In this document: in pieces, positions 23,531 to 31,850 of the stretch
Position numbering within the stretch: position 1 is the first letter of the stretch
Layout of the letters: each line of letters starts with the position of its first letter
Source: Mobula hypostoma
Taxonomy: Eukaryota
DNA length: 64,000 nt
Assembly (NCBI RefSeq): GCF_963921235.1
Contig: NC_086097.1
Location: 5,208,001 to 5,272,000, forward strand
Reading direction: 5' to 3'
Program-made: the position numbers and the translations under genes
Notes under the pieces: model-generated
The model's database searches: none
Seen by the model: only the letters and a program-made list of their open reading frames with translations
What the model was told of the DNA's origin: nothing

Positions 23531-25675
23531 AAGTTTAGATGGTGGGGTAGAGAAACTTAAGGATTTGTAGCAGCAGTACAGTACATTGCATAAAATTATC
23601 ATAACACAAAAATAATTAAATGGTGTAAAAGAGAAATCGTAAGGCAGTGAACATGGATTCGTAGATGCAGCCTGGCCTGCAGAGTTCCTCCAGCATTTTG
23701 TATGTGTTGCTCGCCTTACCCAGTGTGATGTGTGATGGAAATGAACTTTACCCTCTTCTGAATCTTCTTGCTCTTCATTTGCTTCGATTTTGTAGTCAGC
23801 GAGCAAAGGAATTAAAGGAAACTTTAATTTTCCCTCCTGAGTGGGTTATATCCGGTAGAACACAGGGCTATTTGAGTTGTAAATGCGGGGTAATTATTCA
23901 CAATTAGCACACATCAAATCAATGTGTGTGTGTTTTTCTCAGTAGTCCTTTGCATCCCAATTAACTCTATGTGGTATAAAAATAATCAAGTGGAATATTA
24001 AATGCGTCCATCCAATTTAAACCGTCTAGTAGGTGAGAATACTTGACCTCTCAACAAGATGGTCTAACTTTCAATCCATGTTAAAATAAACAAGTGAGCC
24101 AAAGACGGTTCAGCACTGACTGGATGGGCTGAAGGACCTGTTTATGTGCTGCACTTTGACTCTGTGAGACTATGACTCTACGTTATAGCAAATTCTGCTC
24201 CAGAAAGTGCAAACATTATATTTCAGGAAATAATGTATTAAAATTGGAAAGGAATTCCACTCTTAAAAAAAAAGCTCAGGACTGCCAGGGATGAAGGTGT
24301 AGTTAGCAAAAATTTCCTGTAGTTGTGTGATTTTTAAGGTGCTTTTAAAATGTCACAAATTCTGGACACGCTCCGATACAGTGGCTGCTCTGTGACCAAT
24401 CAAAGGTGTAATTGTTCATCCTTCACATCTTTTTCAAAGTAGCAAGGTACGTTTGTATATTAAAAACATGAAGAACTGTGGGTCTATCCCATTGTCGAGT
24501 TGCTCGATAGCGCGGGAGCTAGGCTTGAGCTGAGGCCTGCTGCAGAAACTCAAGGAGGAAGGCCTCAGAGGTGATGTGGGGAGGCTGTACACAGTGCAAC
24601 AAACAGTGCAAATGATTGTATTTTTGTGTTCCGTTGAATGACAATTAAACTTGAACCTGAAATTGACTTGATGGTCTTTTTGAATGACCTTAAAACAGTA
24701 CACTGTGTCAAAATAATGAGACGATAGAAGGTGAAGTTGTGACTCCTTGTAGCCCAGGGAAATGTAAGAGAGGCGGATAAAAAGAGATAATATCACTCCT
24801 GTTTATTAGTCAATAGACTGGTGTGGGAAGTTCCTGGGGAGTTTCTAATTATCTTACCAGCAGGATCCCTGACAAAACAGCATAATTGGCAGAATTCACA
24901 ACATGTCTTTGGGGCTTCCTCCAATCAAGTGTCTCAGTTACAGCTGGAGAATGGGGAATTCCCTGCTGAATTTATAGTCTACTCCATTTGCAGTTGGCAG
25001 ATGTCCAGTGAAAGACTGTTTAACTAAGTAGCAAGTATAAAGCACTGGTAATGTATTCAAGAACCAAAGATGCTATGTAAAATACCCCTTGACATTTGTA
25101 CCCCAGAATAATAATTCTATCTATGAAATGTATCAATGCCTCTCATAATCTTATAAACTTCCATCAGGTCTTTGTTAGCCTCAGAAGTTCCAGATTAATC
25201 AATCCAAGTTTCTCCAATTTATACCATTGAGTCTAGGCAGCATCCTAATAAATATCTTCCACAATGTTTTCAAAGCCCCCACACCCTTCCCGTAATGTAA
25301 GAAAGCAAGATATTTATATGAAGCTGGAATGAAGAATGTAGCTTAGCAGGTAGCAAATGCCATTACGGCTTGGGGCATGGAGTTCAGAGTTCAATTCTGG
25401 TGTCTTCTGTAAGGAGTCTGTATGTCCTCCCCATTGAATGCGTGGGTTTTCTCTGGATCATACTGATTATGGGCACCAATCCATTCACTGATATATTCTC
25501 CATTTGGCCTTCAATGGTCCGATCTACGTGCAACGTTGAACTGAACTAAACTGAATACTACTGGACTCTTGGTCGGATGTTCAATATTCTCTGTGTTCTC
25601 CACTTGCTTTTTGCCATTTGTGCAATTTGTTCTTTTCTCGTGAGTTAGGTGTTTGAAGTTTTCTTGAATAGGTTC

Positions 25676-25985
25676 TGTGCCATATAGCCTACATTATAAT
25701 AAGGGACTACTTTATGTTCAAAGCCAAGATTGGACTCATAAGCCACTTCAGAGCCCATAAGGAGATCAACAGAACGAAGACCATCATCCTCGACCTCAAG
25801 AGATAGCCACGATGACAACGACTTTATGTTTTAGTCACACGTCGTTGTCTGCGCTATTAGGCGCGTATTGATCTGTACGTGTGTGCTGAGTTCGGATTCG
25901 GCCGGTAAAGAACCATGAAACTTAGATCCCATCTCCAGCATTTTTATTAACAGCATTGTTGTGTAGCCAGACCACATACACAACA
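25676..25985 (+). repeat. 5' LTR (198 bp plus a 112-bp insertion)
   Basis: Aligns end to end with 29034-29231 after removing 25719-25830; about 17 substitutions by manual count. Confidence 0.93.
25719..25820 (+). mobile_element. RTE LINE extreme 3' end inserted in the 5' LTR
   Basis: Translates KAKIGLISHFRAHK, resembling the RTE C-terminal C2H2 finger end; 10-bp TSD ACTTTATGTT (25709-25718, 25821-25830); absent from the 3' LTR. Confidence 0.75.
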
Positions 25986-26359
25986 AATTGACGACGAGGT
26001 TAATGAACCTACATCGTATCGGAACGCCGTGTTTTAATTGGTAACAACACTCGGAGGAAGAGCGCAAGGAACGAGCCAAGGAGCGGGAGAAGGAGGCAGA
26101 GTGAGGCCGCGAGTCCGAAAGGAAGTGGGAGCACAGCCAGTGTCGGGAACGTCGGGAGACCAAGAGACACAATCTGAGCCACAGCACATCCAGCCGAGAC
26201 CACAGCCTGCGCTGACCCTCAGGGACTGAGGGTCTGCCTGCCCCAGAGGGGAGATAAAAAGGAGTGACACATGCATCTAGACGGAGTGGCGCTAGCAAAA
26301 AGGACATGTGAGTCAAAAAGAAAACTAGGGGAGAACGGGGCTTAATTAACATAACAAAG

Positions 26360-27550
26360 ATGGCCATGATCGGAACCATTACAGCATTTGATAGTGGCAT
26401 TGAAGACTGGGCAACTTACATTGAGAGAGTGGAGTTATAGTGTGAGGCTAGCGGTGTTAATGATGAAAAGAAAGCCAGCGTCTTACTCAGTATTATGGGA
26501 GCAAAAACATACAAGCTGCTACGGAGCTTGTTAACCCCTGAAAAGCCAGCTGACAAAACATTCAAGCAAATAGTAGACACTCTCCAACAGCATTTAAACC
26601 TCAAACCACTGGTCATTGCTGAAAGATTTAAATTTCACAATCGGAATCAAAGCAAACATGAAAGCATTTTTGGATATTGTGCTGAATTGTGCAAATTATC
26701 AGAACATTGTCAATTTGGAGCTGGTCTATCGCACGCATTGAGGGACAGGTTAGTGTGTGGCATGCACTGTGAAACCACACAGAAGAGGCTCCTGGGTGAA
26801 AAAGACCTTACATTAGAGAAGACGCTGAACATTGCAATATCAATGGAAAGAGCAGCACGGGGTGCTTCAGAGATTCAACAAAAATCTCTGGAATATGCTA
26901 TGTATAAAATGTCACTGAACAGAAATGAAGGGAAGAAATGTTACTGTTGTGAGAACAGGTCACATCACCCTGGTGACTGTTGGTTTAAAGACAAAGAATG
27001 CAGAAACTGTGGCAAACAGGGCCACACTGGCAGAGTATGCAAAGCTAGTAAACAGCAGAAAAAGGACAAAATACAGAGAAACAAGAAACCCCAGAAAGGA
27101 AAACACAACAATGTACACAAAATGGGCGAAAGCAGTTCTGATGAAAACGACTCAGATGAAAGTAAATTGTCTTGTCTGCAACTTCACAGCGTGAAAGAGA
27201 CAGATGATCAAAGAGTAATAAGGATCACTCCATAAGTGGCAGGTGTGAGACTTAAAATGGAGTTGGATACAGGCTCAGCTTTAACAGTGATCTCTGTACA
27301 TGACTACAAATGACTGTTTTCTCACATACCTCTGAAACGAACTAAACTACTGCTAAAGACTTACACAAGACAGAAAGTGCATCCCAAATGTGAAATTAAA
27401 GTGACAGTGAACTATGGAGTCAAAACACAGCAACTGAACCTCTATGTACTGAAAAATGGAGGACCACCATTGCTGGGACGTGAATGGCTCAGGAAAATCC
27501 AGTTGGATTGGCACACCATCAAGGCACTAGATGTGTTAACAAAGGAGGGC
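26360..27550 (+). pseudogene. Gypsy gag plus aspartic protease (single frame, 3 in-frame stops)
   Basis: MAMIGTITAFD..EDWATYIER, PLVIAERFKFH, LRDRLVCG, two CCHC knuckles (CYCCENRSHHPGDC, CRNCGKQGHTGRVC), protease MELDTGS and LLGREWL. Stops at 26438, 27233 and about 27311. Confidence 0.9.
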
Positions 27551-27565
27551 AGCTCGGTGGGGAAG

Positions 27566-28499
27566 ATGTCCACAGCTCTTCTCTCACCCATGGTCGACTA
27601 TTACAACGATGAGGAGGAGCTAGACAGCGTCGATGATGAGGATGAACGCAGTATCCGTGGCTGCGACTCGGATGAAGATACAGAGGATGCAAGGGAGACA
27701 GATATTGCCAATAAGCAGGATGATGAAGACTACCTGGAAGTAAAAGAACAGATGTACCGGAAAAATTGACATCTCCCAAAAGACAGCTACAGCAGTTACA
27801 GGAAGGCACTTTGCAGGAGTATCAGAAAAGGATGAAGGATCTAGATCAACAATACAAGGAAAGAATACAAAACGCAGAGCTTTTTTCTGCAACTGGAGAC
27901 AGAACAAGTGGAAAGGAATTATATTAAAGAGAAGAAAGCAGCAGTGAAGGAATTTGAAGATAAAAAGATTGAGTTAGAAGGGAAAAAAGAGGATTGAGAA
28001 TGAGAGGCTAACAATGGAACTCACAGGACACTCTATGGAGGTAAAGTTAATAATGACTAGGAAACTAAGGAGGAGACCTAATGACCCTGTTCCAATTACA
28101 GACAAAAGACGAAAACCTGCACCTGCGCAGTTAAATTACTTGTTAACAGATGAACAGATAATAGAAGATCTGAGAACTCTCAATAAGCTTAAATCTCCAA
28201 AAATACCAGCATCTCTGTCTTCTCCTGAGCATCTTCCCAGCACTCCTGCTGAATCACCAGCACAAAGATATGAAGCATGAATAGAAGATGGTAAGTTATA
28301 TTACGATTAGAGATGGTATCATAAAGGTCAGGCTATCTATTTGGAATCTAATGAGAATACAAAGATTGACTGTGTAATTAGCTCAGTTGGAACAAATGAG
28401 ATATGGGTAAGGAAGACAAGTGATAGCACAAAGATGCGTGTATATCTAGGACAGCTGCACAGAGGAGTCTTCATTATACGGAGGCGATCTGCTGCATAG
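27566..28499 (+). pseudogene. SUDS3: Intronless retrocopy of Sin3 histone deacetylase corepressor complex component SDS3
   Basis: Recognisable from start to stop: [132 protein letters not shown]. Frameshifts near 27758, 27885 and 27990, a deletion of about 24 nt, and stops at 28278 and 28308. Confidence 0.95.
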
Positions 28500-29033
28500 A
28501 ACTCTTAGCAAGTTGGAGGTGCACATCTTCTTAACTCCCTATGCTCAGAGGTCAACTTTTCATGACTTTTATGTGGAAATCTGTATTAAAACAAACAAGT
28601 TTATTGAGAGACTGAAGAACACACTATTTGAAGACACTTTCCAATGCCATCTCAGTTTTGACGATTGTACATATTTTTAAGAATAACATTCTCCTTTTCA
28701 CGGATTTCACTTTGCTTTCGTCATCTTTGTAAGATGGAGGTGACTACTCTTTATGGCTGGAACCTGCCAATTTGTGGATTGTTTAATTTATTCCAGACAA
28801 CAGACTGAAGACCTATTTGCTTCATGCCAGACAATCTAGAGAAGACCCATCCCCCCAGAGACTTGAGTTATAAATTCACCAAAAGTGAAAAAAGGGCTTG
28901 TTATAATTTGATATTATTAAGTTACTAAGTAAACAAATGGTAGGTGTTTGTACGTTAAGGGTAAACATATTTGTTTTGCATAATGCCCCAGTAAAAAAAC
29001 AGTTGATACACTATTAAAATAAAAGGGGAGGAG

Positions 29034-29231
29034 TGTACCGTATAGCCTACAGTATAATAAGGGACTACTTTATGTTTTAGTAACACGTCGTTGCTTGCGC
29101 TACTAGGCACGTATTGATCTGTACGTGTGTGCCGAGTTCGGATTCAGTGAGTAAAGAACCATGAAACTTAGCTCCCGTCTCCAGCATTTTTATTAATAGC
29201 ATTGTTGTGTAGCCAGGCCACATACACAACA
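29034..29231 (+). repeat. 3' LTR (198 bp)
   Basis: Begins TGT right after the PPT, ends ACA, followed by the GGTTC TSD. Confidence 0.93.
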
Positions 29232-30164
29232 GGTTCTATGGTGTTTCTCTGTTTTGTGGCTGCCCGTGGGAGGACAAATCTCAGAGTTGTATTCTGTATG
29301 CATACTTTGATTATAAATGTACTTTGAATCTTTGATCATTTTAACTTCCAAGTTCTGAGGAACAGATTGTAACAGATGCCACAATTGTAAAAGATTATGT
29401 GGTTGAGAATGTGGCCATACTGGGGTAATCAAACACAGTGAGACATAATGCATAAATAATAGAGCTGTGAGAATTAACTTTGTGAATATGAATATGATTA
29501 AATACATGTCTTATGAATAACTTAATGCATTTACACATCCACCATACGACATTTATGAGCTCTAGTGCTTCCTCCTGATTTCTGAACAGAACAGTAGTTG
29601 GGATAGTGATATGGATTAGAAACCAGGAAAATAACAATCAGTTTTTATTTTATTTAGAGATACAGCGTGGAACAGTCCCTTCCAGCCCAACGAGCGGCAC
29701 CACAGCGCAATTTAATCCTAGCCTAATCCCAGGACAATTACAATGGCCAATTAACCTACTGACCAGTAAGTCTTTGGAATGTGGGAGGAAAGCGGAGCTC
29801 CTGGAGGAAATCCATGTGGTAACGCGGAGAACGTACAAATTCCTTACAGAGAGTGCCAGAATTGAACTCTGAACTCCGACACCCAGAGCTGTAATAACAT
29901 TGTGCTAACCGCTCCTCTACTGTGGCAGTTTGCAACGGTCCACTTCAAGATTAAGAACTGTGACAGGCAAGGGTGAAAGGAAAACCTGGAAATCTCTTGG
30001 CTACGGCTAACAGAGGAGAGAGAGAGTATAAATCCAGTGTGAGATCAAAGGAAAAAGTGTGATTTCAATGGGAGTTACCTTAAGATAAACCTGTTGATTA
30101 TAAAACCGCTGTGGACAATTGATGAGAACCAGTTACTGCCCATGGTGCTGGAGGTTTTCTGTAG

Positions 30165-30990
30165 AGTCAGAGAGTCATAGAGAAGTACTGCACAGAAACA
30201 AACCCTTTGGCCCATCTAGTCCATGCTGAAACCTTTTAAACTGCCTACTCCCATTGACTAGGACTGGGACCAGGGTCCTCCATACCCCTACCAAGCACGT
30301 TCCTATCCAAACTTCCATTAAACATTGAAATCAAACTCGCATGTACCACTCCTGCTGGCAGCCCATTCCACACTCTCATGACCTTCTGAGTGAAGAAGTT
30401 TCCTCTCATGTTCCCCTTCAACTTTTCAGCTTTCACCCTCAACCCATGACATCTGATTGTCGTCTCACCCGACCTCAATGGAAAAAGCCTGTTTGCGTGA
30501 AGCCTATCTAGACCTCTCAAAATTTGGAAGCCACTATCAAATCTCCTCTCAATCTTCTATGTTTTAAGGAACACAGTCATAACCTATTCAATCTTTCCTT
30601 ATAACTCAGGACATTCAGACCCGGCAACATCCTTGTAAGTTTTCTCTGCACTCTTTTAAACTTGTTACATCTTTCGTGTAGGTAGGTGACCAAAACTGCA
30701 CACAGTACTCCAAATTAGGTCGCACCAGCGTCTTATAGAACTTCAGCATTACGTGCCATCTTCTGCACTTAATACATTGATTTGTGAAGGCCGTTGTGCG
30801 AAAAGCTTTCTTTACGACCTTATCTCCCTGTGATGCCACTTTCAATGAATTACGGACATTTATTCTCAGATCTCTTTGTTCTACCACACCATTGCTTGTG
30901 TAAGTCCTATGAAAATGCAAAGCCTCGCACTTGCCTGAACTTAATTCCATCTGCCATTTTTCTAGCTGATGCCGATCCCTCTTCATAGTT
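30165..30990 (-). mobile_element. CR1 fragment (degraded)
   Basis: LVRPNLEYCVQFWSP and NFFTQKVMRVWN in broken ORFs. Confidence 0.85.
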
Positions 30991-30994
30991 AGAT

Positions 30995-31850
30995 AGACGT
31001 AGATAGTTTAGGGGAACGGACAAAGAAGTGGCAAATGAAATACAATGTTGGAAAGTTTATGGTCATGCACGTTGGTGGAAGAAATAAACGGGCAGACTAT
31101 TATTTAGATTGGGAGAGAATTCAAAATGCAGAGATGCAAAGGGACTTGGGAGTCCTTGTGCAAGATACCCTCAAGGTTAACCTTCAGGCTGAGTCGGGTG
31201 TGAAGAAGGCAGATGCAATGTTGGCATTCATTTCTAGAGGTACAGAATATAAGAACAGGGATGTGATGATGAGACTCTATAAGGCACTCGTGAGACCACA
31301 CTGGGAGTACTGTGTGCAGTTTTGGGCTCTTTATGTTTAGAAAGGATATACTGACATTGGAGAGGGTTCAGAGAAGATTCACAAGAATGATTCCAGGAAT
31401 GAAAGTGTTACCGTATGAGTAATGTCTGTCAGCTCTTGGGCTGTATTCCCTGTTGTTCTGGAGAATGAGGAGGGATCGCATAGAAACAGTCTGAATATTA
31501 AAAAGCCTGAACAGATTAGATATGGTAAAGTTATTTCCATGGTAGGGGATTCTAGGACAAGAGGGCAGGACTTTAGGATTGAAGGACGTCCATTTAGAAC
31601 TGAGATGCAGAAAAATTACTTTAGTCAGAGGGTAGTAAATCTGTGGAATTTGTTGCCACGAGCGGCTGTGGAGATCAAGTCATTGAGTGTATTTAAGGCA
31701 GAGATAGGTAGGTTCACGATTAGCCAGGGCATCAAAGGGTATGGGGTGAAGGCAGAGGAGTTGGATGACTGAAAGAATTGGATCAGCCCATGACTGAATG
31801 ACTCAATAGCCCAAATGGCCTACTTCTGCTCCTTTATCTTATGGTCTTAA
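30995..31850 (+). mobile_element. CR1 fragment (degraded)
   Basis: QRDLGVLVQ..LVRPHWEYC..GRPFRTE; tail TCTTATGGTCTTA. Confidence 0.85.

Follow-up and report, generated by a model that had tools for sequence, protein, structure and literature searches.

The window, a stretch of 64,000 nucleotides from Mobula hypostoma, harbors at 25676-29231 a 3.56-kb, non-autonomous Ty3/gypsy retrotransposon copy, flanked by a 5-bp target duplication, in which an intronless copy of the host chromatin gene SUDS3 stands in place of reverse transcriptase (RT), RNase H and integrase. The best explanation, which we consider probable, is that the element belongs, as a single decayed copy, to a gene-carrying family in which the in-frame join of Gag, protease (PR) and SDS3 was most likely a one-in-three accident and SDS3 a passenger. 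The structure, an in-frame Gag-PR-SDS3 join, is supported, whereas a function of the fusion protein is not.

Architecture of the element

The element has the direct long terminal repeats (LTRs) with TG..CA ends and the short target duplication of Ty3/gypsy elements, together with a CCHC gag and a DTG aspartic protease. The pol order of this group, RT - RNase H - integrase, is seen in its relatives as PF00078, then PF17917/PF17919, then PF17921/PF00665. All three are absent from the window element, which is therefore non-autonomous. Its features are as follows.

25671..25675, plus strand: target-site duplication GGTTC, left copy, read directly; the right copy is at 29232-29236
25676..25985, plus strand: 5' LTR, with TG..CA ends
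25989..26001, plus strand: primer-binding-site-like stretch, 3 nt past the LTR
26360..27546, plus strand: gag (CCHC knuckles) and complete aspartic protease, Ty3/gypsy 'K02A2.6-like'; DTG at 27257-27265, stops at 26438, 27233 and 27311
27547..27553, plus strand: 5' joint, 7-nt microhomology GGGCAGC
27554..27565, plus strand: SUDS3 5' UTR, 12 nt, forming the last 4 linker codons in the gag frame
27566..28499, plus strand: SUDS3 coding sequence, free of introns, with 311 codons in the Gag-PR-SDS3 family and 319 in the parent
28500..28837, plus strand: first 338 nt of the SUDS3 3' UTR, long form, without poly(A); the match to the parent's last exon stops here and the parent continues
28838..29033, plus strand: 3' remnant of the autonomous element, with the last pol bases, untranslated tail and polypurine tract
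29034..29231, plus strand: 3' LTR, 91-93% identical to the 5' LTR

The 5' LTR of the window copy contains some 100-112 extra bases, at 25719-25830, that are absent from its 3' LTR and from sister LTRs (198 bp). The primer-binding-site-like stretch starts with TGG in 24 of the 28 copies shown and has one change in the window copy, and the polypurine tract, AAAAGGGGAGGAG, occupies 29021-29033. The gag-PR region shares 61% identity with the gag-PR-RT protein P0121 over 418 aa and 56% with P0125, and it aligns without a break with four autonomous copies from the same genome as far as the 5' joint. In Pfam it gave weak DUF7083 and gag-asp_proteas matches, which lie under the curated cut-off in this decayed copy.

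Capture of SUDS3

The parent SUDS3 gene was found in the genome with a 33-place degenerate pattern and lies at G000:C78:8439658..8380296, where its 12 exons extend over 59 kb; all 12 are joined, without introns, in the element. The identity of SDS3 comes from a protein search; taken one by one, the SDS3 fragments in the window are too short to give an Sds3 match in Pfam. A preliminary description of this DNA had placed SDS3 where RT normally sits, and this is borne out by the autonomous copies, which have RT directly after the protease. Similarity to the autonomous copies ends 8 codons past the motif ...WHTIKAL. The heptamer GGGCAGC is found both in the open reading frame (ORF) of the autonomous element, just past the protease (four copies), and in the SUDS3 5' UTR.

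At the other end, the joint of the long form lies within the SUDS3 3' UTR and shows microsimilarity of at most 2-3 nt. A form with a short 3' UTR harbors 16 extra bases of autonomous sequence, with its joint at a second microhomology, GACAGAC (7 nt), which fits a recombination between the chimera and an autonomous element. The best four matches to the 3' piece are all chimeric copies, and among 10 further places sampled, three have sequence other than SUDS3 upstream of the 3' remnant. At one non-chimeric place this upstream sequence runs into integrase-like ORFs, in which zinc-finger, core and C-terminal motifs were recognised by eye. The guessed 3' end of one autonomous copy was rejected, as it proved to be unrelated repeat sequence and not the end of the element.

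Measured against the chimeric retrocopies of Tan et al. (2016), the element has an intronless copy of a multi-exon parent replacing an internal ORF, shows microsimilarity at the switch points, and carries neither poly(A) nor LINE-type hallmarks. The capture is LTR-mediated gene capture, an already known kind, of which the SDS3 family is a new case.

Reading frame in the window copy

The gag ATG at 26360, the DTG motif (codons GAT-ACA-GGC, first base 27257) and the SDS3 ATG at 27566 had been described as sharing one frame, and all three positions are indeed 2 mod 3. The stop-to-stop frames 26312-26440, 26441-27235 and 27314-27769 lie in this same frame, parted by single stops at 26438, 27233 and 27311. 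Also confirmed was the ORF at 27377..27769, which starts with GTG at 27377 and is open from the protease end (LLGREWL..WHTIKAL) into SDS3, with 13 linker codons between the two. This open leader adds almost nothing to the case, because only 12 nt (4 codons) of SUDS3 5' UTR separate the joint from the ATG; the remaining linker is the retrotransposon's own reading frame.

The stops had been taken as single-base lesions, two of them plausibly CGA>TGA. Those at 27311 and 28278 do stand at CpG-type sites, but three frameshifts had been overlooked, and because of these SDS3 is out of the gag frame in the window copy, leaving it at about 27758. The first is a 1-base loss at ~27758 that is absent from all 29 other copies compared, the second a 1-base gain at ~27881 that is missing from 26 of the 29, and the third a 2-base loss at ~27983 of bases that 27 of the 29 have kept. 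Stops within SDS3 follow at 28278 and 28308. With the exception of the stop at 27311, the other lesions of the window copy are private or in the minority among the 30 copies.

The family and its founder

A query of the genome with SDS3 DNA only gave 512 first-look candidates, and all 40 of those scored match at 91-100%. For comparison, 30 of the at least 512 copies were picked as the best matches to the window. All 30 have the same 5' joint, and at least 80% are without parent codons 140-147, a 24-nt in-frame loss that is the sole internal SDS3 deletion of the family. On the strength of these two shared features all copies come from one capture, and they are therefore not replicates of the in-frame join. 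Identical 5-bp flanks, different in each copy, are seen in 13 of 23 readable copies, with 7 more one letter apart (table read by eye). The copy tree is star-like, with a median end branch of 0.047 and inner branches of at most 0.013, and the median divergence between LTRs is 0.102 (n=25). The Gag-PR-SDS3 family, as read from these sequences, is one old burst of at least about 500 insertions.

Every one of the 30 copies is broken, and none has an intact SDS3 frame. There is, however, no stop or frameshift common to all 30, and the 13-codon linker is free of lesions throughout. With the family frame defined by those columns that half or more of the 30 copies fill, the distance from the gag ATG to the SDS3 ATG is 1206 nt, and SDS3, at 311 codons, follows in the same frame, giving 713 codons in total. 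Since the copies have no lesion that all of them share, the founder probably carried one continuous 713-codon Gag-PR-SDS3 frame. The earlier claim that the captured form encoded Gag-PR-SDS3 therefore stands in part: the copy tallies make an open 713-codon frame very probable, but a majority reading would carry the protease stop at 27311, which is found in 18 of the 30.

This stop is the basis of an alternative in which the founder was never a full fusion. If 27311 was already a stop in the founder, or in many of the source copies, translation would end 25 codons past the DTG and SDS3 would be untranslated cargo. Besides the 18 chimeric copies, three of four autonomous copies have the stop; the split at the site among the 30 copies (7 CpG-type, 18 stop, 5 other) does not match the pooled pattern of CpG decay (chi-square p = 0.0003); and the stop letter is dominant in contigs of two of four sequencing runs. 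We nevertheless think it unlikely. Twelve of the 30 copies are without the stop, and seven of these have the CpG-type codon, which back-mutation rarely gives. The stop is unclustered on the tree, where it needs 9 changes compared with 9.7 after shuffling; an equally uneven split is seen at four or more other CpG sites; and related elements elsewhere have a sense codon at the site. The stop was also considered as a subfamily marker and rejected, as it shows no tree clustering and no significant tie to the long or the short 3' UTR form (5/7 versus 13/5, p = 0.14). A single nominal association (p = 0.008 among 15 tests) ties it to a site at a distance of 154 nt.

Origin of the in-frame join

In the mechanism that we favor, and as the anatomy of the element shows, two template switches onto a co-packaged spliced SUDS3 mRNA took place during reverse transcription in the particle of an autonomous element, one within the SUDS3 3' UTR and the other at the 7-nt microhomology in the SUDS3 5' UTR. 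The product retained its two LTRs along with the primer site, gag, protease and polypurine tract, with RT, RNase H and integrase exchanged for SUDS3. The GGGCAGC microhomology is by happenstance codon-aligned in both partners, so that the founder would be one 713-codon Gag-PR-SDS3 frame. The chimera would then have been copied in trans by the enzymes of the autonomous element, a presumed trans-mobilisation, and a single burst of at least about 500 insertions would have been followed by neutral decay of all the copies examined. We agree with the preliminary description that an in-frame join has a one-in-three probability by chance.

Another reading is that frame continuity itself mattered, in that a cargo read through with Gag-PR multiplies better in cis, the identity of SDS3 being irrelevant. 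The fusion protein might bind its own encoding RNA, as is reported of the gag-pol fusion of the mouse IAP I-delta-1 element, or a long ORF might spare the RNA from decay. Consistent with this, both gene-carrying gypsy elements seen in the genome are in frame at the joint, the SDS3 deletion preserves the frame, and the linker has no lesion in any of the 30 copies. There is also a precedent, since in the part of the report used here (PMC6466679) the I-delta-1 gag-pol fusion works in cis and gives most new IAP insertions. We regard this reading as doubtful, however. It draws on n = 2 captures (p ~0.11), the second of which was read from one decayed copy, and if the unclustered stop at 27311 was present in the sources, the frame was truncated yet spread went on. 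Moreover, in gag, PR and SDS3 alike, the variants shared among the 30 copies favor no codon position: shared non-CpG variants fall at 131/116/148 over the three positions (p=0.36), and singletons at 377/377/392.

The second capture is an unrelated gypsy element of the same genome, read from that one copy, which carries a fragment of a host RRM protein and is in frame across the joint. Pfam gave nothing on this element; a structure-bank search gave weak RRM matches, and protein-atlas RRM leads stand at 0.85-0.86. Slu7 and MIR-domain genes, chosen from the genes named in bioRxiv 10.64898/2026.06.26.734816, were not amplified as captures in the genome (5 candidates for Slu7, one multi-exon gene, and 28 for the MIR-domain genes). 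Taken post hoc, the SDS3 deletion, being a multiple of three, and the two in-frame joins make three one-in-three events, or ~1/27, an observation that counts against accident.

This is a hint that frame continuity may be favored among chimeras that multiply. The wider proposition, that high-copy LTR-gene chimeras in the ray lineage are preferentially in-frame fusions of Gag, protease and host protein, with read-through of the cargo aiding multiplication, we consider improbable. Were it so, the RNA might be marked or shielded in cis by the fusion that it encodes, or a chromatin or RNA-processing cargo in the particle might blunt host silencing. In-frame chimeras would then be germ-line analogues of Gag-oncogene retroviruses, and a general pattern of this kind would point to a translation-linked rule for which chimeras spread.

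Selection and the fate of SDS3

Against the parent protein the copies have a median identity of 90.9%, and are thus ~9% diverged, whereas the parent SDS3 protein is itself 100% identical to P0002 and P0038 and 99.7% identical to P0007, from three other rays. By the NG86 method, dN and dS are 0.042 and 0.144 between parent and copy, 0.069 and 0.124 between copies and, by subtraction, 0.007 and 0.082 on the stem. The copy-copy ratio of 0.56 is read as a transition/CpG artefact because the variants are spread evenly across the three codon positions. As a signal of constraint, the ratio of 0.09 on the stem was set aside, because the stem includes the parent's own lineage, which is unpolarisable without SUDS3 DNA of another ray; likewise the parent-to-family branch, for which a dN/dS estimate had been proposed, holds too few changes and is unpolarisable. 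The 18 fixed differences from the parent, 14 synonymous and 4 non-synonymous, look constrained in their split, yet most are placeable on the parent's own lineage. As the burst was fast, selection tests among copies have little power for a short active phase. The open frame under purifying selection that is expected of a functional retrogene is found in none of the 30 copies.

It had been suggested that SDS3, possibly released from the fusion by the protease or carried within particles, could have served as a decoy for Sin3/HDAC silencing or have modified it; on this reading it would have helped the element to spread. The probably open frame of the founder would allow this, and the three SDS3 segments with solved structures, namely the coiled coil, the Sin3-interaction segment and the C-terminal domain, are all retained. 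The copy number is also far above the few copies of the LTR chimeras described in the part of Tan et al. (2016, PMC5131818) used here. The idea nonetheless seems to us very improbable, as the copies show no detectable constraint on SDS3 and the 8 lost residues lie in the segment solved as a dimerising coiled coil. Three amino-acid changes are common to 70-97% of copies, against a parent that is invariant among rays, and the RRM-protein cargo of the second in-frame chimera has no evident link to Sin3/HDAC silencing. Nor is a fused Gag-PR-SDS3 annotated among proteins of 392-1248 aa: with the 713-aa read-through as query (X at stops), the widest single match covers 60%, so that no protein spans both halves. 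Among the sequencing runs on record as RNA, none has the stretch; contigs across the joint occur in two of four sequencing runs, the kind of which is only guessed. With variants even over codon positions and a protein divergence of ~9%, neither the decoy nor release by the protease finds support.

Least probable of all is that the host adopted one or more copies as a working SDS3-like retrogene. Two ray species do have annotated 'SDS3-like' proteins with an open frame of 311 aa, but their identity to the parent, 89-90%, is no higher than that of the broken copies. Among 512 copies, chance alone would leave ~8 SDS3 frames open, and none of the 30 examined is intact.

Significance and comparison with known systems

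In the portion of a survey of cartilaginous fishes available here (bioRxiv 10.64898/2026.06.26.734816), SUDS3 is among the five parental genes with most retrocopies, and retrocopy abundance is linked to non-LTR elements; that portion makes no mention of an LTR vehicle, a joint or a Gag fusion. The gypsy vehicle explains, in the examined genome, the rank of SUDS3 as a top 'retrocopy parent' of these fishes, and it counsels against attributing retrocopies of this sort to the LINE machinery, or taking those with open frames for genes that have been retained. In addition, the joints provide a clean example of microhomology-guided template switching. Gene capture by animal LTR elements has so far been mostly a matter of single or few copies, but SUDS3 on its gypsy vehicle reached hundreds in a vertebrate genome.

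Acutely transforming retroviruses likewise capture a spliced host message by template switching or recombination and fuse it in frame to gag. These Gag-oncogene viruses lose replication genes and become helper-dependent, but they are infectious, act in somatic tissue and carry a cargo under selection for what it does to the cell, whereas the SDS3 family is a germ-line retrotransposon whose cargo bears no sign of selection. In plants, maize Bs1 and rice LTR elements contain transduced pieces of cellular genes between their LTRs, at low copy and with fragments of several genes.

A close comparison is with the LTR-mediated chimeric retrocopies of Tan et al. (2016, Genome Res; PMC5131818), in which, according to the sections of that paper used here, an intronless host mRNA replaces internal ORFs of an LTR element, switches show a median of 6 bp of microsimilarity, and the product can retranspose as a pseudo-LTR element. 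As in those retrocopies, both LTRs are kept in the SDS3 family, poly(A) is lacking, and microhomology amounts to 7 nt both at the 5' joint and at the 3' joint of the short form. In contrast to them, as described in those sections, the SDS3 family has at least about 500 copies and not single or few insertion sites, it contains a whole coding sequence in frame after a complete gag and protease, and its host is a cartilaginous fish, outside their survey. The mouse IAP I-delta-1 element is, in the part of its description used here (PMC6466679), also a non-autonomous LTR element with a novel in-frame fusion ORF, formed by an internal deletion that joins gag to pol, and new insertions of it are more numerous than those of its autonomous parent. 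I-delta-1, however, fuses its own gag and pol and has, on that account, a demonstrated cis effect, whereas the partner in the SDS3 family is a host gene.

Structure and affiliation of the element

The non-autonomous SUDS3 chimera of the window (25676-29231, 3.56 kb) is built from the following principal features.

25676-25985, 5' direct repeat, starting with TG and ending with CA, with GGTTC outside
26360, gag ATG
27257-27265, GAT-ACA-GGC, the DTG motif of the protease
27547-27553, GGGCAGC, at the 5' joint with SUDS3
27566, SDS3 ATG
28837, end of the match to the last exon of the parent SUDS3 gene
29034-29231, 3' direct repeat, starting with TG and ending with CA, with GGTTC outside

The gag-protease (gag-PR) product is 61% identical over 418 residues to P0121, a gag-PR-RT protein that starts with the same residues, and 56% identical to a second protein, P0125. 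Both belong to the Ty3/gypsy group and are 'K02A2.6-like' by their source labels. The match stops 8 codons past ...LDWHTIKAL, where both proteins enter reverse transcriptase (RT). When a sister copy is read through, with X at stops, it matches SDS3 proteins of the Sin3/HDAC complex with E down to 1e-166, the best protein matches being several 'SDS3-like' entries from two Mobula species.

The 5' LTR of the window copy harbors some 100-112 extra bases (25719-25830), the ends of which repeat a short LTR motif, and neither its own 3' LTR nor the LTRs of sister copies (198 bp) contain them. Immediately downstream lie two facing ORFs (30615-31007, minus strand, and 30993-31340, plus strand), which have in common a reverse-transcriptase-like tail motif, ...LVRP..EYCVQFW, and look like LINE-type fragments.

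The parent gene and its capture

The parent SUDS3 gene, found via a parent-specific peptide that is absent from the element copies, lies on contig C78 of the studied genome (G000:C78:8439658..8380296) and comprises 12 exons over 59 kb, all of which are present in the element, joined without introns. The spliced model encodes 319 residues and equals the annotated manta-ray SDS3 (P0002) save for an 8-residue stretch of that annotation. These extra residues, placed at the exon 9/10 boundary and absent from the proteins of other rays as well, probably reflect an annotation or splice-site difference. Intron 7 (~8398854 to 8395736, within locus L037) has AT-AC ends and begins ATATCCTT, and resembles a U12-type intron.

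Four autonomous copies of this genome, which belong to the same gypsy family, align without a break to the chimera through gag-PR up to AAGGAGGGCAGC. Past this point the autonomous copies enter RT, while the chimera continues as TCGG.GGGGAAGATG, which is the parent 5' UTR. The seven bases GGGCAGC at the joint are common to the autonomous element and the SUDS3 5' UTR. With just 12 nt of UTR between the joint and the ATG, the open leader consists almost wholly of the retrotransposon's own frame. At the other end, the match to the parent stops 338 nt beyond the stop codon, although the parent sequence continues, and no poly(A) is present at this 3' joint. The final 196 nt before the 3' LTR end in a polypurine tract. 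At 3 of 10 further genomic places sampled, what lies before this stretch is not SUDS3, and in one of the three the preceding sequence runs into integrase-like ORFs. The stretch therefore represents the autonomous element's own 3' end. About 29 nt of this piece (region 28898-28926) stand in tandem twice in most sister copies and once in the window, as judged from the pattern of BLAST blocks. In its anatomy, the element corresponds to LTR-mediated retroposition with template switching guided by microsimilarity, as described by Tan et al. 2016 (PMC5131818).

A multiplied family

With the 2140-bp stretch of the chimera as query, the genome yields 2071 first-look candidates, autonomous gag-PR among them. 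An SDS3-only query yields 512, and all 40 of those scored match at 91-100% over nearly their full length. Among 23 copies in which both 5-bp flanks are readable, 13 have identical pairs, each with its own sequence. Of the rest, by our own reading, 7 have pairs that differ by one letter and 3 have pairs that do not match. Such copy-specific duplications indicate separate integrase-made insertions.

The window copy was compared with 29 sister copies, chosen as its best matches. All 30 have the 5' joint in common, and 80% or more of them have lost an identical set of 8 parent codons (24 nt), which together point to one capture. The lost codons lie in the part of SDS3 whose structure was solved as a coiled coil. 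From the block pattern, the 3' UTR is long in about 12 copies and short in about 17. Rather than showing a simple deletion, the short form carries 16 extra bases of autonomous sequence, joined at a second microhomology, GACAGAC (28606-28612 in the window; also in sister copies L050, L051, L054 and L057-L061). Its sequence would fit a recombinant between chimera and autonomous element, and such an origin fits the latter's role as helper.

The 30 copies form a star-like tree (median end branch 0.047, inner branches no longer than 0.013), and the two LTRs of a copy diverge by a median of 0.102, indicating one old burst.

A probable ancestral fusion frame

The gag ATG, the DTG motif and the SDS3 ATG lie in one frame, as the preliminary description had stated, all being congruent to 2 mod 3. 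In the stop-to-stop frames of the window, this frame has no interruption other than three single stops (26438, 27233 and 27311), and the stretch from the GTG at 27377 to 27769 is open, as had also been claimed, taking in the protease end, a 13-codon linker and the start of SDS3. The view that single-base stops account for the present damage is incomplete. The rest of SDS3 falls into pieces in three different frames and, relative to sister copies, has three frameshifting indels that had been overlooked, as well as two further stops.

Lesions of the window copy and their occurrence among the 29 other copies
Stop 26438: 0
Stop 27233: 1
Stop 27311: 17
Frameshift ~27758: 0
Frameshift ~27881: at most 3
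Frameshift ~27983: at most 2
Stop 28278: 6
Stop 28308: 0

Lesions were tallied column by column over the 30 copies, in place of a consensus, the register being set by those columns in which half or more of the copies have a base. Within this register, the gag ATG lies 1206 nt from the SDS3 ATG, and SDS3 continues the frame for 311 codons, for a total of 713. No copy is intact, each carrying from 3 to 14 stops or frameshifts, and the linker is free of lesions in all 30. No indel is common to 8 or more copies beyond three that mirror lesions of the window copy and a fourth located in the 5' UTR. The lesions of the window copy are private or confined to a minority, with the exception of the protease stop at 27311-27313, which is found in 18 of the 30 chimeric copies and in 3 of the 4 autonomous ones.

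This exception lies at a CpG-type site, where 7 of 30 copies keep a CpG-type codon and 5 have other codons. Typical CpG sites of the family are half decayed, and the split at 27311 differs from the pooled pattern (p = 0.0003), the stop being commoner than ordinary CpG decay would predict; a comparable imbalance is seen at no fewer than four other sites. The stop does not cluster on the tree (9 changes, as against 9.7 in shuffles). Our reading is recurrent decay, with a stop that may already have been polymorphic among the source copies; if it was, spread did not require the fusion frame to be complete. A nominal negative link connects this stop with the CpG site at 27157.

The proposal of an ancestral Gag-PR-SDS3 frame, with SDS3 in the place of RT, gains support from the 713-codon register and from the autonomous copies, in which RT follows the protease. 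We consider it probable that the founder carried this frame uninterrupted.

Selection

Variants are spread evenly over codon positions 1, 2 and 3, both as singletons (377, 377 and 392) and as shared non-CpG variants (131, 116 and 148), the two classes not differing (p = 0.36), and no codon-position bias is seen in gag, PR or SDS3 separately. The copies have a median identity of 90.9% to the parent protein, which is itself 100% identical to manta ray and sawfish SDS3 and 99.7% to that of stingray. The suggestion that the fusion acted as a decoy or modifier of Sin3/HDAC silencing finds no support in these even codon positions, nor in an identity of about 91% set against an invariant parent. Annotated open 'SDS3-like' proteins are equally diverged from the parent (89-90%), and about 8 open frames are expected by chance among 512 copies, given a mean of 4.1 lesions per SDS3. 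Parent and family are separated by 18 fixed differences, 14 synonymous and 4 non-synonymous, one of the latter abutting the 24-nt deletion and so possibly an alignment effect. Most of the synonymous differences can have arisen on the parent's own lineage since capture.

Joined forms in sequencing runs

In two of four runs, contigs (27501-27758 and 27423-27856) cross the 5' joint, extending more than 31 letters to either side of it. Spliced parental SUDS3 contigs, which include the 24 nt and the longer 3' UTR, occur in these runs as well, as do contigs in which RT follows at the joint. As the type of these runs is guessed and none is recorded as RNA, the contigs show that joined forms exist in several related organisms, and no more.

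Comparison with other gene captures

A second gypsy element with a host fragment, L053 (G000:C1:5773900-5777150), lies 502 kb downstream and carries an RRM-like sequence. No DNA similarity links it to the SUDS3 element, and its gag-PR protein is 40-49% identical to P0121 and P0125; it therefore belongs to a different lineage. In its joint region (1638-2132), protein alignment traces the gypsy frame to position 1862, and what reads like the beginning of an RNA-recognition motif lies in this same frame. A 98-codon open frame (1836-2132) spans the joint. Sister captures out of frame had been envisaged as evidence against the fusion. This one is in frame, making two of two independent captures (p about 0.11), with L053 read from one decayed copy. 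The in-frame pattern in two unrelated chimeras may be taken as a hint.

SUDS3 is one of the five parent genes with the highest numbers of retrocopies in cartilaginous fishes (bioRxiv 10.64898/2026.06.26.734816), and the accessible text of that source mentions neither an LTR vehicle nor a Gag fusion for these retrocopies. No published account of this element was found in the literature on SUDS3 retrotransposons or retrocopies or on Mobula transposable elements. The kind of event is known, and the SUDS3 chimera provides a case of LTR-mediated gene capture that is both well resolved and present at high copy number.
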